Sequence record: OM632664.1
DNA: 64,000 nt
Reading direction: 5' to 3' (one strand)
Origin: Escherichia phage BEU5
Below are positions 18,378-37,048 of the stretch, piece after piece; positions within the stretch are counted from its first letter, which is position 1; the number at the start of each line of letters is the position of its first letter. Under the pieces are notes generated by a model. It was not told the origin of the DNA, made no database searches, and saw nothing but the letters and a program-made list of their open reading frames with translations. Made by a program: the position numbers and the translations under genes.

Positions 18378-18461
18378 TTAGTGCTCTGGTATATTACTTT
18401 TAACCCCTAGGTTATGCCACAGTAATACAACAGATTGGGTCATCTGAAACCAGAGCACTAA
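18378..18461 (+). ncRNA. long-stem element C immediately 3' of tRNA-Pro
   Basis: 13-bp perfect inverted repeat ttagtgctctggt / accagagcactaa enclosing 58 nt with two internal hairpins (attact/agtaat and cagat/atctg). Confidence 0.4.
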
Positions 18462-18824
18462 CCTAATGTGTGGGATGTAACAGTTAAATCCAGTTGCCGG
18501 AAGTGCAATTCTAGATACGCTGCCAATGCGTGAACGGTAAGGCTGTACAGGACTCGGACTCCCATCCCACCTCCTTATTTGAACCAGGTATGAACGGCTT
18601 ACTTAGTATTAACTGCATAGGGGTATGTTAGGGATACTTAGGTGGTAAGCAGTTGGTAAGAATCCAACATGGTTCATTCCCTATTAGCAGTAACATAGTC
18701 CTGAGTACGTGTGCTCTAAAGACAATATTGGCGAGACAGTCCAATAGCTGCTAAATTAAATTCGTCCATTCCTCTTGGATGTGTAGCGAGTGAAGGTAAC
18801 ACTTAAAAATCCATGACCCACAGA
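18462..18824 (+). other. ORF-free, structured non-coding segment downstream of the tRNA cluster
   Basis: about 360 nt without a plausible ORF on either strand; inverted repeat gtgggatg ... catcccac spanning about 100 nt; ends at an intrinsic terminator. Confidence 0.35.
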
Positions 18825-18852
18825 AGCCTCCGGTTAATCCTGGAGGCTTTTT
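18825..18852 (+). terminator. intrinsic terminator closing the tRNA/ncRNA block
   Basis: GC-rich stem gcctccgg/ccggaggc-type hairpin followed by TTTTTT. Confidence 0.65.
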
Positions 18853-18876
18853 TATTTAATTAAATAAGGAAGTAAG

Positions 18877-19248
18877 ATGAACCGTATTACTGAAGAACAT
18901 ATTAATAGCATCATTGAAGGTGCTTACTACTTCAATATGGCTAAAGCTGTAGAGAATGAAGCAGTTCTGATTCCTGAAGACCATTTAAAAGCATTGAGTA
19001 CAACTACTGTTTGTGCACTGGTTCTTTCTAATGGATTCACTATTACTGGTAAATCTGCCTGTGTTGACCCCAACACCTTCAATGAAGAGTTAGGTAAGAA
19101 ATATGCTTACGAACAGGCCATTGATAAGGTATGGGAATTGGAAGGCTATTTGCTTAAGCAAAACTTGTATGAGAAAGCTCAGAGCCAGGAAATGCTAAAA
19201 GGATTCCTGCAAGATGACAACTGTGAAGGTGGGGGCTGTAAAATCTAA
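18877..19248 (+). CDS. hypothetical protein
   Basis: 123-aa ORF with AAGGAAG RBS; C-terminal CEGGGCK; no confident family assignment. Confidence 0.45.
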   Translation: MNRITEEHINSIIEGAYYFNMAKAVENEAVLIPEDHLKALSTTTVCALVLSNGFTITGKSACVDPNTFNEELGKKYAYEQAIDKVWELEGYLLKQNLYEKAQSQEMLKGFLQDDNCEGGGCKI

Positions 19249-19741: not shown

Positions 19742-19766
19742 GCCCCTCTAGTGAGGGGCATTTTTT
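19742..19766. terminator. bidirectional intrinsic terminator at the convergence of plus-strand genes and the minus-strand vRNAP gene
   Basis: stem gcccctc/gaggggc with 4-nt loop, T-run on plus strand and A-run (T-run on minus) on the other side. Confidence 0.7.
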
Positions 19767-19767: not shown

Positions 19768-22700
19768 TTAGTGGGTAAGGTTGAACCAAGGATTGAGGGT
19801 AGGTGCTCTTAGTCCTTGTCCGAAGCCTAATGAATAATCCAGTCTTCCTTCAGCCAGCATGGTTAACATGTTGTCCTGAATTGGTAGACCTACATTACCA
19901 AACATGGCAGGAGCGGGTACTACTGTAGCAATCAGAGAATGTACTGGGTTGTTTCTAATCATGCTCATAGCAACTTTAATGGAACGAATCTTAAAGTTGT
20001 AGAACCACATCAGACCCATGCTTTCCATATAACCACGGAAACGACCAGGCAATCTGTCATAGTTAACAAACTCTTCAGTTACTTGACCTAATGCTTCAGA
20101 AGAAGATTTTTTCTTACGTTTCACTAAATCATCATAGATGATGGCTTTAGCAATGAAGTCTGAATACTCTACTGTTTTCTGGATACCCTGGAACAGAGCA
20201 GTGTCCTTAGCAATAAGAGCATAACGGCCAGCATTACGTACTTTTTCTGGAAGTTTATTAGCAAGTTTTTCCATGTACTCATGAATCTTACCTTCAGCTA
20301 CTAACAGGTCATCACGACTAATACCAGCATCAGCAATAGAAGAGAACTCACCTGCTTCAATCAAAGGCCAGATGCTCATACGACGATGGCTATCAGTAAT
20401 AGATTGAATCTCGGTTTTAAGTTTACGAACCAGATTAGGATTGCCTTCAGCAGCACGTAATTCTGCTTCTGCATCAATCTGACGTAAACGAGATTTAATG
20501 TACTGATTAATCTCTGACGTCTTACGAGGAATGTTCACAGCAATATCCTTAACAGGAACACCACGTCCAATCATCTGGTAGATGTTAGCAAGGAAGTTAA
20601 CTGCCGGTACTACAACAGATTTAACAACAATTACTGTCTTAGCATCCTTCACCAAATTCTGAATGGTATTTTCAGCATTCATTACTACATGATATGCCTT
20701 ATTACCAAATGCACCGAGGAACATCTTCTTAACAGTATCAAGGGTGCTAGATGACCAACGAGAGTTACCAGTCCATACATCACCAATAGATGCAGCACGA
20801 TAGCCAAGTGCATCATTCAGCATATCCCTACGAACCCATAACTCATCTTTACCAAAGAGTTCTTCAGCCTTACGACGAGTCTCAATGTTCATCAGGTTAA
20901 TTGCATCAGCCAGTACTGGGTCATCAATTTTACCTAACAGGTTTACATATTGAGATTTATTAGCATTAGAGTCTTTAATGTCTTTCTCATACATAGCATG
21001 TAATTGCTCGATGAGAATGTCATTAAAACGTTGTGCTTTAGCCTCTTCCACCTGACGACCACGCCATACACCAACCATCTTAGCAAAATGATTGTCTTGG
21101 TTTAGATGCTTCAACATATTAGGGTCAACGGATTGCTCATAAGCAACTACCTGACCTTTGCTGTTATAAATTGGCATCAGTGGTTCACGTCCACGTTCAC
21201 CTTTAGCCAGAGCTTTGGTAATACGCTCTACGGTTGGTTTGTCAGTAATACGACCAGCAACCATAGTACCTAACGTAAAGCCAGTACCAATATCCACGCC
21301 ACCAGCAGTATTACGAACGTTCTGAAGAATACCTTGAGAGTATGGGGCACGGGCAGCTACTGGGCTGAAGTAATAACCTTTAGAACCAGTACGGAAACCA
21401 GTGCTTCCCTGATAAGTACCAATACGAGTAAAAGATTGGCTATTTAACTTAGCAAACTCTTTATCGTCAGCAATAATCAAATTCACACCTTGCTGGTTCT
21501 CTACAGGGATATAGCCCTTAAAGTGATTCAGCAAAGTACGGTTATCACCTTTAGCTTTACGCATCTCTTCAGTACGTTGACCCACCATATAAGCAATGGA
21601 GAACTCCATACCTTCCACTTCTGATTGAGCCAATTCTGACAAAAGGTCGCGGTCAGACTTATTCATCAATTCCAGAGAGTACAAAGTAATGAGCTTATCA
21701 ATAGCAGCTACATCTGCCACAGGACCATTAGTAATACGTTCACCTAACAAACGACTAATAGCATGGGCATTACGAAGGAGGTTATTACCTACTTCCCCTG
21801 TAATCATGTATTGAGCCAATTGCTTAGATTTCTTCTGAACCAGATTCCAGTTTCTACCTGCTTGGTTCTGAATCTCTTTTTCCAGAGTAGAGATTTCATC
21901 TTTCACTTTCTTAAATGAAGAGAGTAAATCTCTAATTTCAGCCATGCTCATAGTTTCACGTAGAACAGCTAAATCTGTTTTACCTAAACCAGTATGCATT
22001 GCAGACCACTCGGTATCAGTCAGTTTACGAGAGAACTTACCAGCAATGACTGTAGGTAAATGCTCACGGAATTGTTGACGGTCTTGAGAAATCTGGCTCT
22101 TAACCAATTTGATTAAGTCATAGACATTGGCATTAGTCTTAGTACGGCCAACAATGTCATTAACTAAGTCATGGAAAGGTTGCCATACTTTACCCTGGTT
22201 CATAGCAGTCATAATACCCTGAGCCACTATTTCACCTTGTTTTTCAGATGCAATAGCAGCAGTCAGTTTAGCCAGATGAGCAACACCTTTAGCAGCTACA
22301 TTAGAAGGGTTAGCAATTACCTTATCTGCCTTTTCAATAACAGTTTCAGATAACCGTTCAATGCTATCCGTTACGTACTGATTAGCACGGTCAATGAAAT
22401 TACCGGTAGGGGTTGCTACAGCATCATAGAAAGACTCTCGTTTCAGAGCAGCAGCCATGATTGTTTCTGACAGAGCATCAATACTGTCCTGAACATTAGT
22501 AGCTTTCTGGTCACCAGCCATACGACGGTTCAGAGATTCCATTACCTGAGTGCCTGCATTGGTAAGCAGAGTATCTACATCATTACCTAATTTCTTATCT
22601 GCTTTAGGTACAGGCATTTCTTTAATGATTGAACGTAGTTCTTCATTAACCATAGCCAGACCCAGGAATGTAGGTAACAGACTGGTTCTGCCTTTGGCAT

Positions 22701-25700
22701 CTACTTCAACCAGATTAGCACCAGAGATAGTGTCATATTTCTGTTGAGCGTAGTAACGGTCAGCAGGGTTAGTACTATCAGGGTCAGCCATGAAATGTTC
22801 TACCGTAAGGTGTTTCATTACATGGGTATAAAGTTCCTGAGCACGAGCCATAGCGTGTGGGTCAATTGCAGCTTCAGTTGCTAATGCAGCAGTAACCATC
22901 TGGAATACAGATTGTTCCTGAGCAGTCATATTGAAGCCACGAGACTGAACATCACGAACCAGTCGAGTAGCACTCATTAATGCATTAGCCACATTGCCAC
23001 GACGTTCTACTTCTGTAACTGGGTCAGTACGAAGGTAATCAGTTACCAGTTTATCGAAGGTCTGATTCAACTGAGACAGACGTTCATTGTTGCCATATGC
23101 TTTGCTATGGAACAGTGTGCCATCTTTAGCTACTGCCTGAGTTGTAGGTTGGCTACGCATCAGAATTGCAGAGTTAAACAGCAGATTAGAGAACATATCT
23201 TCTCCCAATGCAGGAGCTTGTTTACGTCCCCAAATCAATTTCTTAATGGCCTGATAAACATCTTTCACCATTTGAACCAGTGAAGATGTTCTCTTCTGTT
23301 TAGCAGCAAGAGCACGGTTAGCTAACCCCCAAGCCATAAACTCATTAAGAGCAGCAGCTTTAGAGATAGCTGGGTCAACAAAGCCATTACTCAAATGACC
23401 TTCAATAGTTGCAATAGCATCAGCATATGCTTCTCTCATTTCTGGAGAATCTTTGGAAATATCCAGAGAACGGAACTGTTCCATCAGACCTTCAAGGTTC
23501 TCAATAGCCTGCTTAGAAGTAGGGCTTACTTCATTACCCTGATAGAAGGAATAAACTTCCTCAAAGGTAGAAGCATGAACCAGTTCATGAATGAGGGTTT
23601 CCATAGATGGGCTAACCAGATAAATGGTCTTATCATCGAAGTTAGTCCAGCCATAAATATTGCCTGCCTGAGCTTCTTCCATTTCCTGAGAAGTCAATTC
23701 AGTAACATTCTTCTGACGAGCATACTCTGCAACCTGAGTAGGTGTACCGTAGATAATCTTATAGTCTTTAGCTGCCAGTGATTTCTGAATCTCAGCAAGA
23801 GTAGCTGCCTGAGTAGATGGCAGATTACTAATCTTAGCCAGATTACGAATAGCAGTAGCAGACAGGATACGAACACCGGATGCCTTATGCTCACGGCCTA
23901 CCATACCAAAGTCTGGATTCACTGGTTCTTTTTCAGAAACAGTTTCTTCTTTGACTTCAGCCTTAGCCTTAGCGACTTTTTGTTTACGGGCTTCTAACTC
24001 TTCACGGAAAAGTTTATTCAGTTCATCAGCCTGTTGTTCAGGAGTCATATTGCTGAGGTCAATCTTACCGTTGTTCTGATAAGGAGCACCTACAGCAGCC
24101 ATCTGGTCAATGGACAGATTTACCTTATCCAGTACCTTATGGCGAATATCTACACCCAGTGCAATATTACGTAAGTTACGTTCAATCAGAGATGCAGCAT
24201 TAGCAATATCATCTACAGTAGCATTCTCACGTTGGTCATATTCCAGAGCAGATTTACCAATTGCTTCCAATGCTTCAGGGGACAACTTGCTGAAATCTAC
24301 ATTTTTCATGAACTTAGCATATGATTCGTAAACATTCTTAATAGGGTTACCCTGCCAAGAAGTGTAAACAGCTTCATTAGCCTTACGACTAGCATCAGTG
24401 ATGTCATTCAAACCAATGTTCATACCATCAAAGATTTTGAGGGTATTCTTTGGTGCACCTTTCATAGTGGAAAGAGTTTGCATCATCATGCCGTCACCAG
24501 TACCAATAGTCATAAATGGAATACCTGCTACACCAGCCTGTGCTGGGGCATAGATACTCATTGGTACACGCATACGGTCATCAAGGTTAGTAGCTAATAC
24601 CTGATTTGCTACTTCTGCATTTTCTGAGCCAGCAATGTAGAAAGTCTGAGAACCAGTCTCAATCATAGGAGCTAAGTTATTCAGAGAAGCCTGAATATCA
24701 TTCAGTTCTTTCTGAGTAAGGAAATCGCCTTTCTTCCATGTCGGGTCTTTAGCCTTCTCTGTCAGTTTCTCCTGTACTCGCTGTTTGAACATATCTTCCA
24801 GCACTACAGATTGAATCTGAGTAGCTTTCTGTAATTGTTCAGTGGAGTACACCAGACTTTCACCCACAGTCTGAGTAATACCATTACGTAGTGGTTCTAC
24901 AAAGAAGTGCAGCATATTTTCCTGAAGTGCCTTCAGTTGCTCACCCTTAATGGTATAGGTCTTAGGATTGATTTTCCCTTTGGCTCCTGCACCTGTGGAT
25001 TGTAGTTCCAGTACACCTTTACGTTTAACAGGAACGGTAGAAGTCAGTGTTTCCATATCTTTCAGGAAACGAGCAAGAAGTTCTTCAGCATGTGCTTCTG
25101 AAGCAGCTTGCTTACCAAACATTGCCATAGCAGCAGAAATATTTGGGTCTTTAGCACGAGCTTTCAGCACATCGGACATACGCTCATAGATGGCATCAGT
25201 AACAGAACTAACCAGCTTACCTGCAATACCACGAGCACCAGAACCATAGATGGTAATAGTCAGTGGGTTCTTAGCAATACCACGTTTAAGTTCTAAAGCA
25301 CCATTCTCACCGAGATTAATATCCGGTAAGAACAAATCCATCAGAGAAAGAAGACTGTCTATCTGGGACTGAATAGGCATATTAGAAGCGTAGTTACTAC
25401 GTAACTTACCCAACGATTCCATCAAAGCATTAGTGGATGCTTGATATAAATCATTATTGTCAGCAGTAGAACGATGCTCATTCATGGTCTTATTTGGAGA
25501 ACCAATGAACAAGCCACCTTTGGCAATGTTACGAATCCAGTCAGGGGTAAACAGGCCACCTGTCATTAGCATCATGGCATTGATTGGACCATTAGTAACA
25601 CCATCTGCTTCTACATACAGTGGGGTTACAAATGCAGATTTATCCTCTGCTACTAAGTAACGGGAATACTCCATAAGAGCCATCAATGCTACGAATGACT

Positions 25701-28700
25701 TCCTATCCCCTAATGCTGTATTCAGAACACCAACTGCATTTTCTGGTAAGGAACCAGTGGTATTAAACTCAACCATCATATCAATGGCTGGTTTCAGATT
25801 ACCTTCCAGTAATTTAGTCAACTCGTCAGACATAACCTCACGAGTCATAGTATGGACTTTAATGTCCAATGCCTGAGCCAGACCTAACTGGAATGCAGAG
25901 AAGTCTTCATTGTTCTGGTTCGATAAATCCAAAGTAGCTTTAGTAGGTAGGATAGCCTCACGAACCAGTTTGGCTGATTGAGGATTGTATTTACCTAACA
26001 TCTGCATACGACCAACACGGGTCATATTATATGCATAGTGAATAGGCACAGTAGAGATGTCTTCACTCTGTGCTCTTACCTGCTCAATGACGGAAAACAG
26101 TTGGTTGTAAGAGTCCTCTACTGAACGGTTCTTACCTTCCAGAGATTTAGCATGATTATCATTAAGTAACTCTTTATTCAGAGTACCAGCACCCATCAGT
26201 TCGAGAATACGGTCTTTACCTAACGTCTCGTAGAATTGAACCATTGGAGTGTGTACATAGAACTCTGTAGCCTGCTCTGCTTTCAATGCAGCCTTCTGTT
26301 CTGGAGTATTACGAACAGCAGGATTACGAAGCTGAGTATTAGCTACAGGAGGAATATCATCACCAAAGAACATCTTCTCTGTAGGATTCACTAAAACAGC
26401 TTCTTCAATAGCAGTAGGGAAGCTATTAATTGGGTCGAAGGAATCCAGTTCAGTAATGGTGTACAGACCAATAGTCTTCTTATTATCTGGGTCAATTTCT
26501 GACATATCCACGATGTTCTCTACAACATCAGTAGACTCTACAAATGCAGCCAGAATTTCCGCAGCCATTGCTGTAGGGATACCTTTGGTATAGCCCAATG
26601 GAGCATTTGGATTACGAGATAATCCCCAGTAAGACTCAATTTTCTGAGCCAGGGAACTAACTGCTTCAGTGAGTGTCATACCAGTATCAAATTGCTCTAC
26701 TAAACCTTCTGGCAGCAGAGCTTGGTCAATACCAGTAATAGCAGCAACATCTTTTGCATCTTTGATAGCAGTATTGCTGGTAGCAGTAAGTCTCCACTGA
26801 AGACCTGCTAATACAGCAGTCTGTAGCAATTGCTCATTGTACTTAAAGGTATCCCCATCCTGTTCAACGATGTTAAGTAACTTACCGCCTACCCAACGGT
26901 TGGCTTCTGTACCCTGAGCAAAACGTTTACCAACATCCTTAGTGTTAAGGAACTTAGCCAGACGGGAACGAAGAATATCAGCAATACCTTCCCCATGTTC
27001 CATGAGTTCTTTGTATCGCTTAATAACTTCCCCATTAAAAGCAGGATTAGCAACTTCTTTCTCAGTAAAGAGTTCATAACGAGCACGGGAAGACAGAGCT
27101 TGAGCTACATCTTTTAGAGGTGCTTCTGAACCAACAGTACGGGATTTCTGTTCTTCCGGTAAGGTAAAGGACAATTTGAAATAGTTCTTAATACCCTCTG
27201 CTTTAGAATCAGCAGTACCTACCAATGAGGGGTAAACAGCATCGATACCTTCTCTTAATTCTTCTGTAACTGTGCTTTCTTTTGCAGAAGTTTCAGTTTC
27301 TTTAACAGATTCAGTAGGTTGCTTGATGGTGTCCTCATTAGTAAGGTTAACATCCTGTTTTTCAGACTGGTTCACAGGTTCTTTTATAGCCTGTGGGCTA
27401 GACTCTTTAGTAGTAGGTTCTGTTTTAACAGATTCACTAACAGGAGTCTTAGTCTGTACAGTAGATGTAACTGGTTCCTGTTTTGTAACAGGAGTTTCTT
27501 TAACCTGATTCACGGAGTCAGCTTTCGGTTGAGAAGAAGCAACGTCTCGATTGCCTTGACGGAATGCCTTGACCACCTCAGCAGCAGGAGCGTTAAGACG
27601 TGAATCCAATGGAGTAACTTTTATATGACTGACCTTCAGTTCCGGGTAAGCCGAAGCGAGGGCATTAGCAATATCCGCTACCGTTTTCGCTTCAAGAGCA
27701 ACTTGCTGGGCAAATTTAACCGACTTAGTGTCATAGGGATTGACCCCCAATCCGGTACGGCTACGAACCCATTCTCTGTCAGCAGTAAGAGCTTGGTAGT
27801 GGACAGACTTATTCTTATCCGCATCCCCCGTAACAAGATGCTCATTCAACGCTCCAACCTTATTCTGCATGTGCTGGGCGAACTGCATAAAGTCGTTCAG
27901 GTAAGCGGAGGCCAACTCGAAATTACCAGAGTTATACGCAGACCGAATCCTATTCGCATGTTGCAACGCAGAGTATTGTCCTTCCTGAGTTCTGCTCTCA
28001 TCCGTTTTAATCTGTTTACTCACAATGTCTTGAGGACGTAATCCAAGACGGGCAGCTTCTGCATCATATTCCCGTGCCCCCTTCAGGATTGCAGCAGCAT
28101 TCTGAAGGGCAGCAATTTGGCGATTATTCAGTTTAATACGACCATCAGCAGCATGTTTAAGAACAACATTTACAGATTCTGGATTGAGCTTTTCAGGAGC
28201 TACTTCAGCAGCTAATGCTACGTTCTGCATTTCCTGTGGACTGGATTCTTCAGTCACATCCAAAGAACCATTCTGGGCAGATTCATTAATCATTCGATTA
28301 ATAACATTCAGTGCACCAATTACTTTTGGTGTGTTCTGAATATTAGCTGTCAGATTTGTATAACGATTGAGTAACTCAATAGCCGGAGAATCTTTAGGAA
28401 TGCTATCCAGTGCAGCAGGGTCACGGTTAATGAATTGCTCAAACTCTGAAACAGCATCATACATATAAGATGCAGCTTCCATCAGTGCTTGAGGATTAGA
28501 TTCATCTAATGTGTTAACTAGGTCTGCTAACTTTTGAATAACCTGTACTTGGTCAGTAGAACCAGCTACAGCATTACGAATATGCTCTGGTGCTTCCTGA
28601 TAATTTTCAGGATTAAAACGAGTAGCATTCATTAAGTCAGAAACATACTGGTGTGCTGCAACTTTCTGTTCCGGAGTAGCATCAGTTGCTTCAACAGCAT

Positions 28701-30270
28701 CACGAATAGTAACTTCTGCTTCTGGTGCTTGAGCCATAGCTTCTTGTGCTGCCTGTGCAACATAGTCATCAGCAACAGGAGATGCTTCTTCATTCTGCTT
28801 CATAACCCGCTCACCACGAGCTACCAAAGTGTTCTTAATAGGGGAAACAACCTTACCTGCTACACTACCAGCAGCTTTAACACCAGCCATTGTGGTACGC
28901 AATACAGGAGCAGTTGCAGCACCTGCTAAACGAGCAGCACCAGCCGGAGCCTGTACAACACCAGCAGAACCAAAGCCATAAAGAGCACCTAAACCAGCTT
29001 GTGTACCGACACCTTTAAGCAAGTCTTGGTTCTTATCAATGTTTTGTTGCTGTGCAATATTCTGAGCCAGTTGGCCTGTAGCACCCTGAACACCTTCTTC
29101 CACTGTTTCACGGGCAAGGTTCATACCTACAGCACCTAAAGAACCAGCACGGAAAGGAGCCATCTCAAAACGAGATACCAGAGGACCAGTTGCAGCAGCA
29201 ATAGGTAATTGAATAGCAGCAGCAGTAAGACCAGTTTCAGATGCAGTCTGACGACGAGCCTGTTCTGGAGACATACCATCTTTAATATGTTGCTGATAAA
29301 CAGGAGACTTCTCTAAGTCTTTAAGACTCATCTTCATAATTTCATCAGCAGTTTGTTGGTATGCACCACCAGCTTCCATTACACCAACACCAACCATACC
29401 TGGTGCAGCTCTGCCTACAGTAGAAGCAATACGAGCCAGGGACTGAGTACCAGTACCTGCATCAATAGCACCAGCCAATGCAGCACTACGAAGAGTATTT
29501 GCTGGAACAACTGCTTTACCCAGTAAAGATGCACCCTTTAATACAGGACCAGCACCTAATAGAGAACCTACCCCTTCTGCTAACCCATCAGAAATAATAG
29601 AGTCAGTTTGAGCAGCATTCTCAATTGAACCTACAAAATCACGTCCAAATTTAGATAAGGAAGCTACTATGTCATTAGTGCCTTCTTTCTTATCTGTTTG
29701 ATACTGACGTTCACTCTCTACCTCACTCATTAAGTTACGAGCAGCGAAGAGCTTACGTTTATCTTGTAATGCTTGGCTTTGGGTAGCATGGACAGCATCA
29801 TTAAACTTACTCAATTGTTGAGCAACAACAGCACCTGCGTCATCGTTGAGTAAGCCTGCCCCAAGAGCACCAATGCCCCCAAGGGTATTAACAAAACCAA
29901 GACCAACACCAGTAGCAATATCCCCCAGTTCTTCCCCAGGAGTTCTTGTAGTAACTGAATCATTGAATACCTGGTTCCCTGCATCAGCACGAGCGTTGAT
30001 AAGTTGTAAGCCTTGCTCAACCCCATACTTATTCATGATTTGCATTGGAGTCAGATTCATGAAATCTGATTGCACTGTCCCTGGTTCAAATGCATTAGCC
30101 CCAACATTACCAGTACGGGCAGCTTGCATTTGATAAGCAGCATCAGGAGAAACAAGAGGAGTAGTGACACCTTGTTCAGCTTTCTTCTGGGCGGTTGCAG
30201 TAGAGACGTCAACTTGCTTTGCATTGGTTACGCTGTCTGCGAACCCAGCCAGTCTATCAAATACTGACAT
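19768..30270 (-). CDS. virion-encapsidated RNA polymerase (N4 vRNAP/gp50-like giant protein)
   Basis: single ORF of 3500 aa from ATG 30270 (AGGAAA RBS; track ORF starts 18 nt upstream at TTG); size and position at the head of the late structural block match N4 vRNAP; hairpin promoters of the type it recognises are present in the early region. Confidence 0.85.
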   Translation of the reverse strand: MSVFDRLAGFADSVTNAKQVDVSTATAQKKAEQGVTTPLVSPDAAYQMQAARTGNVGANAFEPGTVQSDFMNLTPMQIMNKYGVEQGLQLINARADAGNQVFNDSVTTRTPGEELGDIATGVGLGFVNTLGGIGALGAGLLNDDAGAVVAQQLSKFNDAVHATQSQALQDKRKLFAARNLMSEVESERQYQTDKKEGTNDIVASLSKFGRDFVGSIENAAQTDSIISDGLAEGVGSLLGAGPVLKGASLLGKAVVPANTLRSAALAGAIDAGTGTQSLARIASTVGRAAPGMVGVGVMEAGGAYQQTADEIMKMSLKDLEKSPVYQQHIKDGMSPEQARRQTASETGLTAAAIQLPIAAATGPLVSRFEMAPFRAGSLGAVGMNLARETVEEGVQGATGQLAQNIAQQQNIDKNQDLLKGVGTQAGLGALYGFGSAGVVQAPAGAARLAGAATAPVLRTTMAGVKAAGSVAGKVVSPIKNTLVARGERVMKQNEEASPVADDYVAQAAQEAMAQAPEAEVTIRDAVEATDATPEQKVAAHQYVSDLMNATRFNPENYQEAPEHIRNAVAGSTDQVQVIQKLADLVNTLDESNPQALMEAASYMYDAVSEFEQFINRDPAALDSIPKDSPAIELLNRYTNLTANIQNTPKVIGALNVINRMINESAQNGSLDVTEESSPQEMQNVALAAEVAPEKLNPESVNVVLKHAADGRIKLNNRQIAALQNAAAILKGAREYDAEAARLGLRPQDIVSKQIKTDESRTQEGQYSALQHANRIRSAYNSGNFELASAYLNDFMQFAQHMQNKVGALNEHLVTGDADKNKSVHYQALTADREWVRSRTGLGVNPYDTKSVKFAQQVALEAKTVADIANALASAYPELKVSHIKVTPLDSRLNAPAAEVVKAFRQGNRDVASSQPKADSVNQVKETPVTKQEPVTSTVQTKTPVSESVKTEPTTKESSPQAIKEPVNQSEKQDVNLTNEDTIKQPTESVKETETSAKESTVTEELREGIDAVYPSLVGTADSKAEGIKNYFKLSFTLPEEQKSRTVGSEAPLKDVAQALSSRARYELFTEKEVANPAFNGEVIKRYKELMEHGEGIADILRSRLAKFLNTKDVGKRFAQGTEANRWVGGKLLNIVEQDGDTFKYNEQLLQTAVLAGLQWRLTATSNTAIKDAKDVAAITGIDQALLPEGLVEQFDTGMTLTEAVSSLAQKIESYWGLSRNPNAPLGYTKGIPTAMAAEILAAFVESTDVVENIVDMSEIDPDNKKTIGLYTITELDSFDPINSFPTAIEEAVLVNPTEKMFFGDDIPPVANTQLRNPAVRNTPEQKAALKAEQATEFYVHTPMVQFYETLGKDRILELMGAGTLNKELLNDNHAKSLEGKNRSVEDSYNQLFSVIEQVRAQSEDISTVPIHYAYNMTRVGRMQMLGKYNPQSAKLVREAILPTKATLDLSNQNNEDFSAFQLGLAQALDIKVHTMTREVMSDELTKLLEGNLKPAIDMMVEFNTTGSLPENAVGVLNTALGDRKSFVALMALMEYSRYLVAEDKSAFVTPLYVEADGVTNGPINAMMLMTGGLFTPDWIRNIAKGGLFIGSPNKTMNEHRSTADNNDLYQASTNALMESLGKLRSNYASNMPIQSQIDSLLSLMDLFLPDINLGENGALELKRGIAKNPLTITIYGSGARGIAGKLVSSVTDAIYERMSDVLKARAKDPNISAAMAMFGKQAASEAHAEELLARFLKDMETLTSTVPVKRKGVLELQSTGAGAKGKINPKTYTIKGEQLKALQENMLHFFVEPLRNGITQTVGESLVYSTEQLQKATQIQSVVLEDMFKQRVQEKLTEKAKDPTWKKGDFLTQKELNDIQASLNNLAPMIETGSQTFYIAGSENAEVANQVLATNLDDRMRVPMSIYAPAQAGVAGIPFMTIGTGDGMMMQTLSTMKGAPKNTLKIFDGMNIGLNDITDASRKANEAVYTSWQGNPIKNVYESYAKFMKNVDFSKLSPEALEAIGKSALEYDQRENATVDDIANAASLIERNLRNIALGVDIRHKVLDKVNLSIDQMAAVGAPYQNNGKIDLSNMTPEQQADELNKLFREELEARKQKVAKAKAEVKEETVSEKEPVNPDFGMVGREHKASGVRILSATAIRNLAKISNLPSTQAATLAEIQKSLAAKDYKIIYGTPTQVAEYARQKNVTELTSQEMEEAQAGNIYGWTNFDDKTIYLVSPSMETLIHELVHASTFEEVYSFYQGNEVSPTSKQAIENLEGLMEQFRSLDISKDSPEMREAYADAIATIEGHLSNGFVDPAISKAAALNEFMAWGLANRALAAKQKRTSSLVQMVKDVYQAIKKLIWGRKQAPALGEDMFSNLLFNSAILMRSQPTTQAVAKDGTLFHSKAYGNNERLSQLNQTFDKLVTDYLRTDPVTEVERRGNVANALMSATRLVRDVQSRGFNMTAQEQSVFQMVTAALATEAAIDPHAMARAQELYTHVMKHLTVEHFMADPDSTNPADRYYAQQKYDTISGANLVEVDAKGRTSLLPTFLGLAMVNEELRSIIKEMPVPKADKKLGNDVDTLLTNAGTQVMESLNRRMAGDQKATNVQDSIDALSETIMAAALKRESFYDAVATPTGNFIDRANQYVTDSIERLSETVIEKADKVIANPSNVAAKGVAHLAKLTAAIASEKQGEIVAQGIMTAMNQGKVWQPFHDLVNDIVGRTKTNANVYDLIKLVKSQISQDRQQFREHLPTVIAGKFSRKLTDTEWSAMHTGLGKTDLAVLRETMSMAEIRDLLSSFKKVKDEISTLEKEIQNQAGRNWNLVQKKSKQLAQYMITGEVGNNLLRNAHAISRLLGERITNGPVADVAAIDKLITLYSLELMNKSDRDLLSELAQSEVEGMEFSIAYMVGQRTEEMRKAKGDNRTLLNHFKGYIPVENQQGVNLIIADDKEFAKLNSQSFTRIGTYQGSTGFRTGSKGYYFSPVAARAPYSQGILQNVRNTAGGVDIGTGFTLGTMVAGRITDKPTVERITKALAKGERGREPLMPIYNSKGQVVAYEQSVDPNMLKHLNQDNHFAKMVGVWRGRQVEEAKAQRFNDILIEQLHAMYEKDIKDSNANKSQYVNLLGKIDDPVLADAINLMNIETRRKAEELFGKDELWVRRDMLNDALGYRAASIGDVWTGNSRWSSSTLDTVKKMFLGAFGNKAYHVVMNAENTIQNLVKDAKTVIVVKSVVVPAVNFLANIYQMIGRGVPVKDIAVNIPRKTSEINQYIKSRLRQIDAEAELRAAEGNPNLVRKLKTEIQSITDSHRRMSIWPLIEAGEFSSIADAGISRDDLLVAEGKIHEYMEKLANKLPEKVRNAGRYALIAKDTALFQGIQKTVEYSDFIAKAIIYDDLVKRKKKSSSEALGQVTEEFVNYDRLPGRFRGYMESMGLMWFYNFKIRSIKVAMSMIRNNPVHSLIATVVPAPAMFGNVGLPIQDNMLTMLAEGRLDYSLGFGQGLRAPTLNPWFNLTH

Positions 30271-30333
30271 AGTAGGTTTCCTATACAAACTTATATCTAT
30301 TAGAAATCACACTATACCTAGTGTAAGGACGAG

Positions 30334-30356
30334 AAAAAAGCCCCGAAGGGCTTTTG
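30334..30356. terminator. intrinsic terminator between upstream virion gene and vRNAP gene
   Basis: stem agccc/gggct with loop cgaa, flanked by A-run and T-run. Confidence 0.55.
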
Positions 30357-30370
30357 TATTATGGTAGAAA

Positions 30371-32305
30371 TTAACGAGGAAATATATCAGGGATACCCAA
30401 TCGACGTCCGGCATCTCTGCCTAAACTTCTCCGGTTTGCCTCGCTCTCTTCCTGTTTAATATTTTGTAGGCTCTTAATATCCAAATTCTGAGGGTCAGCA
30501 GCTACAGCACTACGAGCACCATCAAGAAGACGTTTAGCAGTATTAACTCGCTCCTGATAGCGAGGTAGTACACTTCTAAGGTTTTCCTGACCGGTCTGAA
30601 TACGACGCTGTACTTCACGTAAATCAGCAAGTGCAGTATCTAACGTATTCTGTGCTGCATAGATGTTTGATTGAATTTGTGCAGTAAGCTGATTACGAGC
30701 ATTCTGTTCAATAGCAGTACCAGTAGTTGCAAGTTTTGCATTTGCTTCTACGGCTGCTTTATCCAGTTGGTAATCACCACCCAAATCAATAACATCAGTA
30801 TCAAAGGCATTTCGAATACCACTAAACCATCCCTCTGGTTTACCAGTGATACTGCGTTGAATGATTGCTCCTGCCATAGCGGGAGAAATAGCATTCTGTT
30901 TTGCTACCTCATTGATTTGTCGAACCAGTGCACCTTGGTTAATGCCTTTCAGTTCATTGTTATCAATAATACGTTTAGCCACCTGACCAGTCGTAGAAGG
31001 GTCAACAGTAGCAGCTTGGTATTCAGGCAGCAGAGTATTACCAATATTCTGCATATTACGAGTACCAACAGTATTACCAGCAACAGAAGTGAATGCTTGT
31101 TCCTGTAATGGATTAATAGAATTACCTGTTTCTGCTTGAGCAATGTAATCCTTCATTTCATCCCATGACAGGTTCTTATAAGCACCCGGAGTATCATCTG
31201 GTAAAGCAGCCCATGTACTCTTCAGATTGCCATTCTTACGAGCATTAAAAATAGCTTCACCCAGTTTGTCTTGGTTCTCCGGAGACATAGGGATGTTCTG
31301 CCAATCTTCACCAAATACCTTTGGAGCAAAGTCTTTAAGGGTATCTTGGTTAATCTGGTATGCACCAACAGGAGAAGCACCTAGTGTCTTCTTCATAGTG
31401 TCTTGATGCTGAACCACCTGACCTAAGTTCATCTGAGTAATAGGTACATCAGTTGGTGTGAACTTATAGGTAGTGTCATATGCAGAACCATTCCGAGTAC
31501 CCTGAGTACCAGGAGGAGATAGAGATGCAGAACCAGTTCCCGGAGTATATGCACCTGGGTATGCTCTATCTAACTGAGATAGTGCACGACTTACTGCTCC
31601 TGGTGACATTTGGTCGAACGTACCCTCTGCAAGCATACGAGCATCGTCAGCACTGTATGCACCACGACGAATATTATTCAGTAACTGCATAGCAGCCTGA
31701 GTATCCGCATCGTTACGCATATCAACACCTAAGTTGAATAAGCTGCGACGTTGACCAATACCAGCAGTACCCTGTCCTTGAAGGTTGTTCATGTAGTCCA
31801 TAACAACACCAGCAGGAAGGGTTTTTAATACGTCTCCATACTGAGCCTGTGCTGCCTGAACCTTTCTTGGGTCACCAGATTGATAAGCCAGAGCCAATTC
31901 CTGCAATGCAGGAGCAGCAGCATCAGTAGCTGCATTTACCTTCATGGTTCTGTCATTACTGTATCGAGTGAAATCCAGATTTTGTTGTTTAGATGCTTGG
32001 TCTAACAGATTGCCAGCACGATTATCTAAGTTCTCCATAGTACGAGAAGAAATTAGAGAAGGGTCATAGCCAGCAAATAATGCTCCAGAAGCTAAGGCAT
32101 TACGATACTCATTAGGGTCTTGGTAACGCATGGCTTCAGCCATAATTGCATCACCAGCTTGCTGTCTTGCAGAGTCTCGAAAATCACCTAATGCATTACT
32201 CAATCCGGCAGTGGCATTACCCAGCATATTGGAGAAAGTACGAATACTATCCCCAACACCAGAGAAAGAAGGAGCATCAACATTACGCCATGTAATTTGA
32301 GCCAT
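30371..32305 (-). CDS. virion protein (N4 gp51-like position), function unknown
   Basis: 644-aa ORF directly upstream of vRNAP in the late operon. Confidence 0.4.
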   Translation of the reverse strand: MAQITWRNVDAPSFSGVGDSIRTFSNMLGNATAGLSNALGDFRDSARQQAGDAIMAEAMRYQDPNEYRNALASGALFAGYDPSLISSRTMENLDNRAGNLLDQASKQQNLDFTRYSNDRTMKVNAATDAAAPALQELALAYQSGDPRKVQAAQAQYGDVLKTLPAGVVMDYMNNLQGQGTAGIGQRRSLFNLGVDMRNDADTQAAMQLLNNIRRGAYSADDARMLAEGTFDQMSPGAVSRALSQLDRAYPGAYTPGTGSASLSPPGTQGTRNGSAYDTTYKFTPTDVPITQMNLGQVVQHQDTMKKTLGASPVGAYQINQDTLKDFAPKVFGEDWQNIPMSPENQDKLGEAIFNARKNGNLKSTWAALPDDTPGAYKNLSWDEMKDYIAQAETGNSINPLQEQAFTSVAGNTVGTRNMQNIGNTLLPEYQAATVDPSTTGQVAKRIIDNNELKGINQGALVRQINEVAKQNAISPAMAGAIIQRSITGKPEGWFSGIRNAFDTDVIDLGGDYQLDKAAVEANAKLATTGTAIEQNARNQLTAQIQSNIYAAQNTLDTALADLREVQRRIQTGQENLRSVLPRYQERVNTAKRLLDGARSAVAADPQNLDIKSLQNIKQEESEANRRSLGRDAGRRLGIPDIFPR

Positions 32306-32315
32306 GTGATACCTC

Positions 32316-32768
32316 TTAACGAGTTAAGCGATTAGCTGCAATGTAAGCATCAGCCGTAGATTGGTCACGATTTTCTGCAACAGCACGACTACGAGCACGG
32401 TCTTCCAGAGCAGTGTTATAGGACTTAATCTGGTTATTCAGATTAGTGTTAGTAACATCTTTAGCAAAAGAGAACTGACTCTTAGCTAACTTGTTAGCCT
32501 GTAATGCACCATAGATATTACCCAGTGCGTTAAGACCACCTAACCCCAACTGGAAGGTAGGAATGTTCAGACCCAGTTGGTCAGTAAGCCCTTGAGTCTG
32601 CCCACCGGTATTCCCTGTAGCACCACCAGTAATATTCTGAAGCCAATCATTACTAAGGATGCCGGATTGCATAGGGTTATAGTTCATGGTTGGGGTATTA
32701 AAGGAACCATACCCATAGCCAAAATTGCTTTGTGCAGATGGGGTTCCAAAAAGGAAATTAGTATCCAT
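32316..32768 (-). CDS. Gly/Asn/Thr-rich small virion protein (putative)
   Basis: 150-aa ORF, low-complexity composition, late operon. Confidence 0.4.
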   Translation of the reverse strand: MDTNFLFGTPSAQSNFGYGYGSFNTPTMNYNPMQSGILSNDWLQNITGGATGNTGGQTQGLTDQLGLNIPTFQLGLGGLNALGNIYGALQANKLAKSQFSFAKDVTNTNLNNQIKSYNTALEDRARSRAVAENRDQSTADAYIAANRLTR

Positions 32769-32781
32769 AAGGATTCTCCTG

Positions 32782-35439
32782 TTACGTATCTAAATCAAGC
32801 TGCAACGTTATATCTGCAAAGTTGGTAATCATGTTGTTAGACATGTCAGCTATATCATGACCAGTCATAAGAGTACGGTTAAGGAATGAATCCAATGGCT
32901 CAAATTGTTGGCCTACATTAGTTAGGTTCATTGGGTCAATGTAACCCATGCCCTCAGTGCCAAACATTTCCTCGTACTTTTCCTGAATGGTTTTCATCTG
33001 GTCACGGTACTCTGCCATAAGTTTCTCTGTCTTTTTGACAGTTTCCATAGCAGAAGCATTGATGTAATCACTTATGCCATTTCCTACAGATGAAGTGAGT
33101 TTAATGATGTTATCTGCTTTCATCATTTCACCCAGCATCGTAGACATGGATGAACCAGTGGATAAAGCTGTACCAACATTCATGGCTACCATAGAGGCAA
33201 TGGTAGCAACAATGATTCCAATCTTATCCCCAAGCAGACTAACAGAGACTGTTTGAATAATGGACATCAGAATCATAGCTGCAATGGCATTAGCCACAGC
33301 CCCAACGATAATAGCAGCTAACCCTGCAAAACCTAATGCAGCACCAATAGAAGCAGCAGTACCCATTACCCCAGCACCAGCAGCAGGAGTAAAGAACACA
33401 GACACTACTACTGCAACAACAACCACTACTACTTTAAAGATGCCAGACTGATACCATTTCTTCTTAACTTTCTTATATGAGTTAAGAACCAGATAACAAC
33501 ATGCAGTAGATAACTGAGTACCATTTACCAAAGACATACTACGATAAATGTTGTTATGAAGAGGGATGATAAATCCGGACTCTTCATCATCATTTAGTGC
33601 ATCTACACCAGAAATGCTTACAGATTTATTCTTGTAAACATTATTGTTATGGTTCAGGCCATAGACAGAAATCTTCCTCCATGAATTATCCCCATCCTGC
33701 CAATACATTGTTATCTTATCTAGCCTGTAGATATTAAACCCAACTTTGTCATTACCCTTTTCAGAGTACATAACGGCTTTCTGCATAAGGACTACAGTAC
33801 CTTCATAAGCAAACTTGAGCTGCCCTTTCTTGGCTCCAGAGAATGCTTTTCCCGAACCAACTGACTCTTCAATGAAGTTCCAACTAATAGTCATGTTGTA
33901 ACGGTATCCACCGTTAGAACGAATATTAATGGATTTAGAAGGTATTGTTGGATATACGGGTCTTTTAGGGGGTTTCCCTATGGGAATATCCCTATTACCA
34001 CTACGAGATTTCCACCATTCCTGGTAGGCATCAAAGTCCCTGTTAGCCTGAGCAAAGCCTTCTACCAAAGCATCCATAGTTGGGTAGTTTGGGTCAGCAG
34101 GCATTGACTGATTCACTAACTGGAAGAACCTGTATATGTACTCTTTAGCTGTATTTTCAGGACTGTTAAGAGAACAACCAAATACAGCATAGATATACTG
34201 AATATCACCAATATCTTTATTCTTCTTCAGGTCATCCATAATGTCAGAAATCTTACCCCCTGTAGCCTTCTTAAAGGCTTTCTTACAAAGAGTATATGTA
34301 GAACCAGAAATCCAGTTCTTATCACTACGGATAGGGATGAATGAATAGAATCTGTTATTGGTTGTTTTATTAATAAACAAAGCATCAAGAACAGCATTAC
34401 CACTATTCTGTTTATAAATAAACAGTTGAGGCATACCACCAGCAGACAGAGTAGTAACTACATCTGTATTCTGATAAGACCATGTATAACCTAAAGTATC
34501 TGTAGTTACTGTAGTAGTTCTGGTTTCAGTAACCCCACCACCTAAATCAATAACTTCAGTGTTTGTAGTGGAACCAGTAGATACAGTACCAGTCTGTACC
34601 TGGGTCATTGTAGTCTTACGAATAATGATTAAGCCTACTTCACTTGGTTCACGAAATTCTTTCTCGTAAACATCTGAGAAGTTAGTCCAACTAACCTGTT
34701 CTTCTTCAGTATTGGTACTTTCCTCATCAGGTCTACCATCAGAGAATACACTCTTAATATGAGTAACTGTCTTCAGAGTAGCTGACTTAGGGGTATGGTT
34801 CTGAGATACCTGAGTCCATTCAGAAGTAGAAGGTAAGTCATCAGCAGATGATACAGATACAACAGGATGAACCACTGGGTCTGCAACACTAGTAGGCTGT
34901 ATGTAGTAATAATTCACATACAGATACATTGCATCCTGACTGTAATTCTTTGGATAAAAGGATAACTCACTACCATCAGTAGCAGTGAGTACAATCCTGT
35001 CATCATCCATGATGTCTATTTCAAACTCTTCAGTAATACGGTCTGGATAATTCTCATAGAGGAATTTATCAGCCCATTCCTCAAAATCACCAAATCCAAT
35101 CCTACTGCTCTGAACCTGTACCTCATAACCTGCTTTTTGAGGAACTTGCCATTTAACTACTTCAGGGTCTATCTGAGACAGTACTGACAAGTTCCCATAA
35201 GCAATACCAATTGAAGGGTCATAGTTAGTTGCAGCCCAACCAGGGAATCTACGTAAACGAATACCAGGTCCATTTAAATAAGAGTCAGTGATGGTATCAC
35301 CCATACTAAAGTCAGATTTACTGACGATGTTACCAATCACCGTAGTCTTTAAATAATTTGGACGTTTATGTATATCCCCTGCCAAATTGTAGACAGAGGA
35401 TGCTACGTAGATTTTAGTCTTACTGCTAAACAGTCCCAT
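32782..35439 (-). CDS. large virion protein with a cluster of hydrophobic Gly/Ala-rich membrane-like segments (ejection/channel candidate)
   Basis: 885-aa ORF; about 120-aa region VVVVVAVVVSVFFTPAAGAGVMGTAASIGAALGFAGLAAIIVGAVANAIAAMILMSIIQ... predicted to form several TM helices. Confidence 0.4.
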   Translation of the reverse strand: MGLFSSKTKIYVASSVYNLAGDIHKRPNYLKTTVIGNIVSKSDFSMGDTITDSYLNGPGIRLRRFPGWAATNYDPSIGIAYGNLSVLSQIDPEVVKWQVPQKAGYEVQVQSSRIGFGDFEEWADKFLYENYPDRITEEFEIDIMDDDRIVLTATDGSELSFYPKNYSQDAMYLYVNYYYIQPTSVADPVVHPVVSVSSADDLPSTSEWTQVSQNHTPKSATLKTVTHIKSVFSDGRPDEESTNTEEEQVSWTNFSDVYEKEFREPSEVGLIIIRKTTMTQVQTGTVSTGSTTNTEVIDLGGGVTETRTTTVTTDTLGYTWSYQNTDVVTTLSAGGMPQLFIYKQNSGNAVLDALFINKTTNNRFYSFIPIRSDKNWISGSTYTLCKKAFKKATGGKISDIMDDLKKNKDIGDIQYIYAVFGCSLNSPENTAKEYIYRFFQLVNQSMPADPNYPTMDALVEGFAQANRDFDAYQEWWKSRSGNRDIPIGKPPKRPVYPTIPSKSINIRSNGGYRYNMTISWNFIEESVGSGKAFSGAKKGQLKFAYEGTVVLMQKAVMYSEKGNDKVGFNIYRLDKITMYWQDGDNSWRKISVYGLNHNNNVYKNKSVSISGVDALNDDEESGFIIPLHNNIYRSMSLVNGTQLSTACCYLVLNSYKKVKKKWYQSGIFKVVVVVVAVVVSVFFTPAAGAGVMGTAASIGAALGFAGLAAIIVGAVANAIAAMILMSIIQTVSVSLLGDKIGIIVATIASMVAMNVGTALSTGSSMSTMLGEMMKADNIIKLTSSVGNGISDYINASAMETVKKTEKLMAEYRDQMKTIQEKYEEMFGTEGMGYIDPMNLTNVGQQFEPLDSFLNRTLMTGHDIADMSNNMITNFADITLQLDLDT

Positions 35440-35442
35440 GTA

Positions 35443-36351
<909 letters not shown>

Positions 36352-36360
36352 TCATTGGTT

Positions 36361-36400
36361 CATTAAAAGAAAACGGCTCACGGTTTTACCCAGTGAGCCG
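36361..36400 (-). terminator. stem-loop with T-run on the minus strand
   Basis: stem cggctcac/gtgagccg, 11-nt loop; minus-strand tail TTTTCTTTT. Confidence 0.45.
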
Positions 36401-36421
36401 TGCTGACTTACAGATTAACTC

Positions 36422-37048
36422 TTATTGAGAGTCTACGCTACCAGCAGCAATCTGAGCAGCAGCCAGAGTTTGTAATTCTTCCTTAGTCAGTGGAGGCAGA
36501 ACTTCAATGGCAAACTCACGTACCCATGCAGACGTAATATTAGGCTGACCATTCTTACCTTTGGTAACTCGAATGTTCAGGAACTTACGTTCTTTGAGGA
36601 AATTATAAATACAGTAAGGGATGTGATAGCCCTCATCAGTAGCTTCACCAAATGGAACGAATTTACGAACAGTACCAATATATTCGTTAGCTACTGTAAT
36701 AATCTCACCAGGCAGGTCTTTCTTCTTAGGGTCAAGGTTCTGAATACGTACTCGAACCAGCTTTAATTGTTCTAAGCGTTGCTGGTGACGTAAAGAAGTT
36801 GCCGTAGTTACTGTACCTGTAGACAGAGCCAGAGGATTAGGCTGAGGTTCTACTGGTTCCTGAGCTTTATTTTCCTGTGCTGCTTCAATCTTCTTACGAA
36901 GAGTTTCAGCACTAATATTATTTGAGTATGAAATACCCATCATATTAGCTCGTTGTTTCAGCAGAGAAAGTTCATCAACCTTAACTTCATCAACGGTGTC
37001 ATCGTTGCCCTGAGTTAAATCAGCGGTCGGTTTATCGTTAATGCTCAT
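36422..37048 (-). CDS. hypothetical virion-associated protein
   Basis: 208-aa ORF between major capsid gene and downstream late genes. Confidence 0.4.
   Translation of the reverse strand: MSINDKPTADLTQGNDDTVDEVKVDELSLLKQRANMMGISYSNNISAETLRKKIEAAQENKAQEPVEPQPNPLALSTGTVTTATSLRHQQRLEQLKLVRVRIQNLDPKKKDLPGEIITVANEYIGTVRKFVPFGEATDEGYHIPYCIYNFLKERKFLNIRVTKGKNGQPNITSAWVREFAIEVLPPLTKEELQTLAAAQIAAGSVDSQ

Follow-up and report, generated by a model that had tools for sequence, protein, structure and literature searches.

The subject of this report is a non-coding stretch in a 64,000-nt sequence of Escherichia phage BEU5 (OM632664.1; hereafter the window), an Enquatrovirus of the phage N4 type. The stretch accompanies the tRNA array of the phage, matches Escherichia phage BEU13 at 100% and phage N4 (EF056009 32296-33655) at 99% identity, and occupies the position of the gap between N4 gp47 and gp48; the N4-type virion RNA polymerase (vRNAP) is encoded beyond it as a 3,506-aa open reading frame (ORF) on the minus strand (19768-30288). 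The original N4 record has no annotation there, and the stretch is likewise bare in the other annotated Enquatrovirus records inspected, that of AlfredRasser (Bas69) excepted. A preliminary description of the window had singled out an ORF-free structured region at 18462-18876 and suggested that it holds one or more further non-coding RNAs co-transcribed with the tRNAs. The region is indeed free of credible genes (the longest ORF on either strand within 18462-18876 has 38 aa, and no ORF is conserved), but it begins at 18376, right behind tRNA-Pro, and the entire non-coding locus spans 17546-18876 (1.33 kb), of which the four tRNAs occupy only 318 nt. The Rfam/Infernal scan proposed at the time returned those four tRNAs and nothing else, even at E<=10. 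Conservation and covariation against related phages gave strong signals in favor of the additional RNAs: as this comparison shows, the locus carries modules (M1-M3 and M5-M9; Table 1), and those behind tRNA-Pro are structured RNA genes under selection as plus-strand RNA structures that are arranged, spaced and exchanged between phages like tRNA genes.

Conservation was searched by blastn against 50,697 phage records and by local blastn against fetched loci (cited below by L numbers). The stretch is conserved not as a block but as separate units of 70 to 140 nt, which occur in differing combinations from phage to phage. In phage Pollock, for example, the order is tRNA-Leu, M5, M7, with no M6 between, and the G7C, L035 and L041 loci have no canonical tRNA, yet keep M8 plus M2 or M3 each (G7C also M9). 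The G7C modules lie in an ORF-free array of ~1.2 kb (L009 845-2071) that ends in the same kind of terminator. Each module has a terminal stem made from its own two ends (7 to 13 bp) and a short T-arm-like hairpin at the 3' strand, and neighboring modules are set apart by 2 to 10 nt of AU-rich sequence. In comparisons of N4 with phages of the G7C and KP8 types, the adjacent vRNAP gene has only 54-60% identity at third codon positions, as against 80-99% for the modules. The arrays of G7C, L035 and L041 also contain further structured units, e.g., a hairpin GGA-CUAUCAA-UCC with a covarying stem.

M6 contains the inverted repeat noted in the preliminary description, which a direct reading of the sequence places at 18470-18477 (gtgggatg) and 18563-18570 (catcccac), a span of 101 nt. 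Perfect 8-mer inverted repeats within 18462-18876 are within chance (2 observed, 0.70 expected; 53 of 300 shuffles equal), 7-mer repeats there are enriched (8 vs 2.8 expected; 9 of 300 shuffles), and across the non-tRNA stretch 17947-18876 the count is 18 vs 1.8 expected (0 of 300). The repeat can be taken as real because of the comparative evidence: in a conserved RNA it makes up stem P1, where the two ends of the module pair. P1 is 7-9 bp long across copies and has compensatory changes in relatives at 6 of 7 aligned pairs. A 2-nt linker leads from P1 to P2 (18480-18483 / 18543-18546), P3 is variable in sequence, and the invariant apical domain of 30 nt (18498-18527) consists of CGGAAGUGC, a 3-bp hairpin and GCUGCCAAU. 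Directly adjoining the 3' strand of P1 is the T-arm-like hairpin (18550-18562; GGA-CUCGGAC-UCC), which throughout the family has a 3-bp stem and a 7-nt loop CUNNGAC and is preceded by 3 nt.

The distribution of M6 reaches far beyond N4-like phages. M6 is 90-99% identical in Gamaleyavirus and Klebsiella N4-like phages and 79-82% identical in 150-kb Certrevirus myoviruses, where it is flanked by tRNA-Asp and by a tRNA-like element that itself comes after tRNA-Glu. Among the N4-like and Certrevirus copies alone, the terminal stem and one inner helix are compensatory and the remainder is invariant. A search with the Certrevirus copy retrieved homologues from tRNA arrays of T4-like phages, where M6 lies between tRNA-Gln and tRNA-His (Karamvirus PG7 and Gelderlandvirus Melville), and a 32-nt block that is 100% identical in Ackermannviridae, the copy in phage Menlow lying between tRNA-Asn and tRNA-Gln. 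Matches to the 203-nt Certrevirus query number 182 phage records; the count for M6 itself is somewhat lower, because some of these matched only the pseudo-tRNA that precedes it. The family thus far belongs to tRNA arrays of Schitoviridae, Vequintavirinae, Straboviridae and Ackermannviridae. No match to the core turned up among 185,579 bacterial and archaeal species (one genome per species), and a metagenome scan yielded M6 in N4-like contigs only. Two neighbors of M6 copies deserve mention in their own right. In KaOmega (L005 2404-2494) the element between tRNA-Glu and M6 has a T arm and an encoded CCA, receives no ARAGORN call and scores weakly with the tRNA-Sec model (30 bits; gathering score 47); it is common to other Certrevirus and Cronobacter phages. 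In Klebsiella phage Menlow (Ackermannviridae; L074 1282-1868), an unannotated gap of ~590 nt between tRNA-Asn and tRNA-Gln holds, besides the M6 homologue, several hundred structured-looking G+C-rich bases.

The apical motif was also used to scan IMG/VR, and with the copies from previously fetched loci this gave 29 distinct trimmed copies of M6 (31 with flanks) from the four phage families. Their alignment supports 22 consensus pairs, of which 15 are compensatory, with 97.5% of cells paired; none of 500 shuffles matched the pairing, the covariation score or the number of compensatory pairs, and slid controls gave 2-6 pairs. Minimum free energy (MFE) folds of single homologues are mutually inconsistent, which leaves the comparative model as the only reliable one. 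Across the four families, some 60% of M6 positions show little or no variation, a level typical of catalytic cores or tight binding sites, and it might therefore be asked whether one module, M6 before all others, is a catalytic RNA of a new kind, self-cleaving or otherwise, by which the array is processed. We regard this as very unlikely, as there is no Rfam ribozyme match and no evident cleavage-site signature, and as host RNase P and RNase E suffice for tRNA arrays.

M8 combines a terminal stem (18687-18691 / 18747-18751) with two hairpins, one central and one T-arm-like (9-nt loop), and its pseudoknot is a 3-bp tertiary helix between G18698-C18700 and G18735-C18737. The module is ~80% identical in nearly all Enquatrovirinae, as is M9. 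RNAalifold recovered the terminal stem and both hairpins from 16 M8 sequences, with 10 of 16 pairs compensatory, and U/C variation in the joining strand on the 5' side is matched by A/G variation in the T-like loop; once the pseudoknot was added to these sequences, 99.3% of cells were paired and 11 pairs compensatory (0 of 500 shuffles). A covariance model built without the pseudoknot (R1) then found two remote members (L040 7581-7659 and L053 8672-8762), of which the latter stands directly behind tRNA-Tyr; the vRNAP of the phage that carries it has only 57% identity. In L040, both partners differ at two of the three pseudoknot pairs and still pair. The alignment enlarged by these members (18 rows, 17 distinct) has 15 compensatory pairs out of 19 and 98.4% of cells paired, again unmatched in 500 shuffles, with 2-7 pairs in slid controls; one pseudoknot pair reads U-A in nine sequences, C-G in six and G-C in one. 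In IMG/VR the M8 pattern occurred in N4-like contigs only. A single hit to the pattern in an archaeal metagenome-assembled genome was rejected as a chance match, its stems being absent.

Paired cells of M6 and M8 taken together include 63 G-U and 4 A-C combinations, and constraint therefore acts on the plus-strand RNA, i.e., on the same strand as the tRNAs. This asymmetry would be unexpected for a cruciform, and covariation in the M8 pseudoknot is a feature of RNA, both of which make it highly improbable that the locus is a DNA-level element such as a replication origin, a recombination or homing site, or a set of hairpin promoters for the N4 polymerases. N4 biology does make use of DNA hairpin promoters, the region is rich in inverted repeats, and an HNH endonuclease gene adjoins the array in G7C; M6, however, is also present in T4-like, rV5-like (Vequintavirinae) and Ackermannviridae phages, none of which have N4-type polymerases, and it always has the orientation of the neighboring tRNAs (with tRNA genes on either side in PG7, Melville, Menlow and KaOmega). 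That the modules encode very small proteins is scarcely credible. The AlfredRasser record does carry two coding sequences here, of 35 aa on M6 (18458-18565, minus strand) and of 33 aa on M7/M8 (18653-18754, plus strand), but these ORFs are interrupted in homologues (the 33-aa frame meets TAG in G7C-type homologues), substitutions follow base-pairing and not codons, and 1-nt indels occur inside modules. The two hypothetical proteins look like gene-caller artefacts.

Table 1. Features of the tRNA and small-RNA array of the window, with positions in the 64,000-nt sequence.
Feature	Position	Strand	Basis or remark
Candidate sigma-70-like promoter (tentative)	17654..17683	+	TTGTAA, 18-nt spacer, TATAAC; read from sequence
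tRNA-Asn(gtt)	17697-17771	+	ARAGORN; Rfam tRNA model
tRNA-Ser(tga)	17777-17866	+	ARAGORN; Rfam tRNA model
tRNA-Thr(tgt)	17871-17946	+	ARAGORN; Rfam tRNA model
M1, long near-perfect hairpin directly behind tRNA-Thr	17947..18045	+	-41 kcal/mol, z = -5.5
M2, 5' domain and tRNA-like element (18114-18182)	18046..18182	+	Conserved in relatives
M3, 19-bp terminal stem around canonical T arm (UAGGUUCGAAUCCUA)	18183..18292	+	Fold z = -5.8
tRNA-Pro(tgg)	18299..18375	+	ARAGORN; Rfam tRNA model
M5, 13-bp closing stem enclosing two hairpins	18378..18461	+	Fold z = -4.7
M6, tRNA-array RNA family holding the inverted repeat	18468..18572	+	Alignment of 29 distinct copies
M7, terminal stem, long irregular arm, T-arm-like hairpin	18580..18676	+	Comparison with Pollock
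M8, 71-nt pseudoknotted RNA	18684..18754	+	18-row alignment
M9, 3' trailer with two hairpins and conserved single strand CUUAAAAAUCCA	18758..18821	+	Sequences of relatives
Intrinsic terminator closing the array	18822..18858	+	12-bp stem, then T run

The remaining modules behind tRNA-Pro have fewer relatives. M5 is 91.6% identical in Pollock, which belongs to a different subfamily and in which it stands directly behind tRNA-Leu. M7 is 82% identical in Pollock and matches only Pollock and Enquatrovirus; it has a 7-bp terminal stem (18580-18586 / 18670-18676) and a T-arm-like hairpin with a 5-bp stem and a 7-nt loop (18652-18668; GUUGG-UAAGAAU-CCAAC). Between the window and Pollock, two of the 30 predicted M7 pairs are compensatory, of which one belongs to the long arm and the other to the T-like stem; an inner helix has a different sequence in its place in Pollock. 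In M9, which is less conserved in sequence than M6 or M8, the second hairpin is AGUG/CACU in some phages and GGAG/CUCC in others, and the first is kept with unrelated sequence. The strong terminator of the preliminary description was recovered as a terminator-like site at 18822-18851 with 12 pairs (6 G-C) followed by TTTTTTAT: it is a G+C-rich stem-loop with a U tract at the end of the unit, as expected of an intrinsic terminator, and a terminator with a covarying stem is found at the same relative position in 20 of 20 aligned relatives.

The position of M9 raises the question of whether the modules are base-pairing regulatory small RNAs (sRNAs), above all M9 with the terminator as a 3'-end-derived Hfq-binding RNA or sponge comparable to the 3' external transcribed spacer (3'ETS) of the E. 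coli glyW-cysT-leuZ operon. In E. coli, 3'ETS-leuZ is a tRNA-operon trailer that acts as an sRNA sponge; M9 and the terminator are likewise a tRNA-operon 3' trailer, with a terminator hairpin, a U tail and a conserved single-stranded motif (CUUAAAAAUCC / CCUUAAAUCC), and have no sequence similarity to it. Against such a role, the conserved motif of M9 lies ~100 nt from the terminator in G7C-type phages, no target was found, and the folds of M6 and M8 are compact and leave little long single-stranded sequence. The sole candidate intermolecular pairing, M6 CAGGACU with M8 AGUCCUG, was rejected, as ~0.4 such 7-mers are expected by chance and as a U-to-C change breaks it in the M8 of Klebsiella-type phages, where that change instead covaries within the M8 pseudoknot. 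Overall, we consider a base-pairing role unlikely.

The gap between tRNA-Thr and tRNA-Pro is constructed in the same way as the stretch behind tRNA-Pro, i.e., as a row of modules. Matches to M1 are confined to Enquatrovirus genomes. M2 is 87-98% identical in Gamaleyavirus and Klebsiella N4-like phages and is labelled "tRNA-Undet" in one record, although neither ARAGORN nor the Rfam tRNA model, which gives the Asn, Ser and Thr genes 50-75 bits, calls it. Its 3' element has a 7-bp acceptor stem, discriminator A, an encoded CCA and a canonical T arm, CUGGUUCGAGUCCAG (UCUGG-UUCGAGU-CCAGA), no D arm, and a single central hairpin with a conserved loop GUGCAC(A) on a covarying stem. In Klebsiella-type copies, this loop has 7 nt and resembles a GCA (Cys) anticodon. 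M3 is 82-84% identical in G7C. The 19-bp terminal stem of M3 in the window is perfect, and its length would make it an RNase III-type substrate.

These tRNA resemblances bear on a further explanation, which sees the modules either as tRNA pseudogenes in decay or as passive structured spacers aiding only the folding and processing of neighboring tRNAs in cis. Consistent with it, M2 and M3 retain canonical T arms and M7 a near-canonical T loop, the motif AGUCCAGAC is present twice in M2, the modules occupy tRNA slots, and annotation pipelines sometimes label them pseudo or undetermined tRNAs. Yet compensatory changes keep the stems intact, and from one phage family to another the loops do not vary, which is not neutral decay. 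Certrevirus, T4-like phages and Ackermannviridae share the 30-nt apical block of M6 at 100% identity, above the 74-81% of the tRNA genes, and G7C-type phages retain modules in the absence of any tRNA that would need processing. We thus find decay or a passive role quite unlikely.

Comparison with known RNAs places the modules near tRNAs without making them tRNAs. No family of Rfam 15, which includes self-cleaving ribozymes, riboswitches, GOLLD and ROOL, reached the gathering score or E < 0.1 within 18376-18820, where hits of note were absent even at E<=10, and the M6 and M8 copies in the PG7, Melville, Menlow, KaOmega and G7C loci had no Rfam match (E<=0.1), these loci giving only tRNAs and chance hits. 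The tRNA model (RF00005; >=29 bits) had no hit in 18376-18860 even at E<=10, and ARAGORN called only the four canonical genes; M6 copies of other phages were likewise not recognized as tRNAs. Like canonical tRNAs, the modules have ends that form a terminal stem, a T-arm-like hairpin at the 3' strand and tRNA-like spacing within the array; CCA is encoded behind M2 and behind many M6 copies, and the loop-to-strand tertiary helix of M8 resembles the D-loop/T-loop elbow. Unlike canonical tRNAs, they have no D arm and no 7-nt anticodon loop, and their T loops are non-canonical (CUCGGAC in M6, 9 nt in M8). The idea that M6 or M8 is a tRNA with odd arms or introns was dropped on the same ground, that no anticodon-like 7-nt loop is present. 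For a putative coaxial acceptor/T stack, which in tRNA has about 12 bp in total, the dimensions are an 8-9 bp stem with a 3-bp T-like stem in M6 and 7 + 5 bp in M7. At least 21 of the 31 distinct M6 copies start <=7 nt from an upstream CCA (of the preceding tRNA or tRNA-like element), and in 18 of the 31 (N0-2)CCA follows directly after the module.

Other tRNA-related systems offer partial parallels. ARAGORN found no transfer-messenger RNA (tmRNA) in the window, and the YrlA model (RF02553; gathering score 69) gave only 19.5 and 17.3 bits at 17838-17895 and 18248-18324, over T arms that lie outside M5-M9. In YrlA, the ends of the RNA form a Ro-binding stem and not an acceptor-like stem (PMC4201824). 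Like tmRNA and the bacterial Y-RNA-like YrlA, the design proposed below joins a tRNA-like module to a non-tRNA functional domain. Two further candidates were rejected. Mimicry of RNase P RNA (the S-domain of E. coli rnpB) by M6 fell within the range of shuffled sequences (local alignment scores of 17-19 vs shuffled means of 15.7-16.5; 33-103 of 300 shuffles equal), and a likeness of the M6 apical domain to domain IV of signal recognition particle (SRP) RNA failed on a different helix topology and the lack of an Rfam SRP hit.

The closest precedent is found in T4, whose species 1 (rnaC, 139 nt) and species 2 (rnaD, 119 nt) are also small non-tRNA RNAs on the tRNA strand of the tRNA cluster of a virulent coliphage; both have been seen on Northern blots, and neither has a known function to date (PMC9697503). 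Either directly abuts a tRNA gene, and the modules agree with them in location, strand and size (non-tRNA RNAs of about 70-140 nt); rnaC moreover has a canonical T arm near its 3' end, in keeping with M2, M3 and M7. A blastn comparison (word size 7) of 17540-18900 with the T4 tRNA region nevertheless revealed no homology to rnaC or rnaD, the best non-tRNA hit being 27 nt of T arm only (E = 0.67). Unlike the T4 RNAs, which have no counterpart of the M6 apical domain or the M8 pseudoknot, M6 spans four phage families. Judged by sequence and architecture, M6 and M8 are RNAs of the same kind but not members of those families, because they are not homologous and have architectures of their own. Our literature search on non-coding RNAs of N4 and N4-like phages, tRNA-like decoys and stable RNAs of tRNA clusters found no description of the modules; a 2023 catalogue of 10,006 viral structured-RNA candidates (PMC10690425) was not covered.

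All modules lie on one strand, and no terminator-like site occurs on the plus strand from 17600 to 18822, from which we infer that the modules are co-transcribed with the tRNAs, as the preliminary description had supposed. The promoter-like element of Table 1 lies 14 nt upstream of tRNA-Asn and fails the strict rule of the scan; a TAGTATAA box and a TTGACG -35 hexamer are common to the window and the equivalent place in Klebsiella phage BaqKoxi, and the G7C array starts with a TG-extended promoter-like site. Just upstream of the tRNA operon are a 54-aa hydrophobic ORF (17381-17545) and an 8-9 bp G+C-rich hairpin (17556-17581). This hairpin may end the preceding unit, in which case the tRNA and small-RNA array would be its own transcription unit.

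With the alternatives weighed in this way, we think it probable, though well short of certain, that 18376-18858 encodes four or five small structured RNAs (M5-M9) that extend the tRNA array to one shared intrinsic terminator, are released by tRNA-processing enzymes and act in trans. A single precursor would be transcribed from a promoter upstream of tRNA-Asn. An acceptor/T-like minihelix is the minimal substrate of RNase P, and for that reason RNase P would be expected to cut at the acceptor/T-like stacks; going by the architecture, RNase E and 3' exonucleases would act at the AU-rich spacers and the CCA-adding enzyme where CCA is not encoded. The released products might then act in trans, with the tRNA-like minihelix as a handle for processing and stability. 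More speculatively, the sequence-invariant parts, which are the apical domain in M6 (30 nt) and the pseudoknot and loops in M8, could be effector surfaces that bind a conserved Enterobacterales host factor, most plausibly a tRNA-directed enzyme or a defence nuclease for which the RNA would be a mimic or decoy. This idea is suggested by the restriction of the family to virulent Enterobacterales phages and its spread over four phage families, by conservation better than that of the adjacent tRNAs, and by the fact that phage tRNA arrays already counter tRNA-targeting defences (PMC11464382).

Several observations weigh against this account. Recent horizontal transfer, and not constraint, might account for part of the high identity between genera, and folding energy gives a weak signal in M6 (z = -0.4) and M7 (z = -0.9). 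M5, M7 and M9 are supported by few homologues, and changes in M5 are one-sided only (G-C to G-U), giving no compensatory evidence. The M6 copies of N4, T4-like phages and Ackermannviridae have no CCA behind the stem. No module scores as a tRNA and none has a 7-nt anticodon-like loop; the modules therefore cannot be decoys for nucleases that read the anticodon loop, and any mimicry must address enzymes that read the acceptor/T region. Lastly, a comparison with 5,426 E. coli genomes matched only tRNA-Pro, by which host origin or host mimicry was rejected and no host partner was found.

Phage tRNA arrays are known as counter-defence loci whose tRNAs neutralise tRNA-targeting defences, e.g., T5 tRNA-Lys against PARIS and T5 tRNA-Tyr against the PtuAB of retron Eco7 (PMC11464382). 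These anti-defence tRNAs likewise come from the tRNA array of a virulent phage, but they are working tRNAs that replace cleaved host tRNAs, and M5-M9 cannot decode. M6, and by analogy M8, could stand for a novel class of effector RNAs in phages, in which a minimal tRNA-like handle, through which the tRNA machinery of the host processes and stabilises the RNA, is joined to an invariant domain that binds and neutralises or hijacks a conserved Enterobacterales factor (such as a tRNA- or translation-directed defence enzyme recognising the acceptor/T region) and which are exchanged horizontally between unrelated virulent phages via tRNA arrays; we offer this tentatively, as a possibility with the balance tipped against it. 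If it were true, T4 species 1 and 2, known since the 1970s and still without a function, would be members of the same functional class. In phage tRNA arrays only the canonical tRNAs are annotated and studied, and the present comparison shows unannotated gaps that hold RNA genes under selection as strong as that on tRNAs, with M6 carried by phages infecting Escherichia, Salmonella, Klebsiella, Enterobacter and relatives. The modules also provide candidates that can be aligned and deleted for an old question, the role of non-tRNA stable RNAs in phage tRNA clusters, and for annotation they are places onto which gene callers put spurious small ORFs or "tRNA-Undet" features.

Three minor observations concern records and neighboring sequence. 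In the Pollock record (KM236242; L008 1171-1500), the four tRNA genes are on the strand opposite to that given by ARAGORN and the N4 alignment. In PBM-3 (PV053165; L004 3434-3522), a coding sequence of ~10.4 kb at the vRNAP position (26430-36785 in the record) is labelled "DNA polymerase." In the window itself, a G+C-rich palindrome, GCCCCTCTAGTGAGGGGC, lies at 19742-19759 between the convergent gp49 and vRNAP genes and has a terminator score on both strands.

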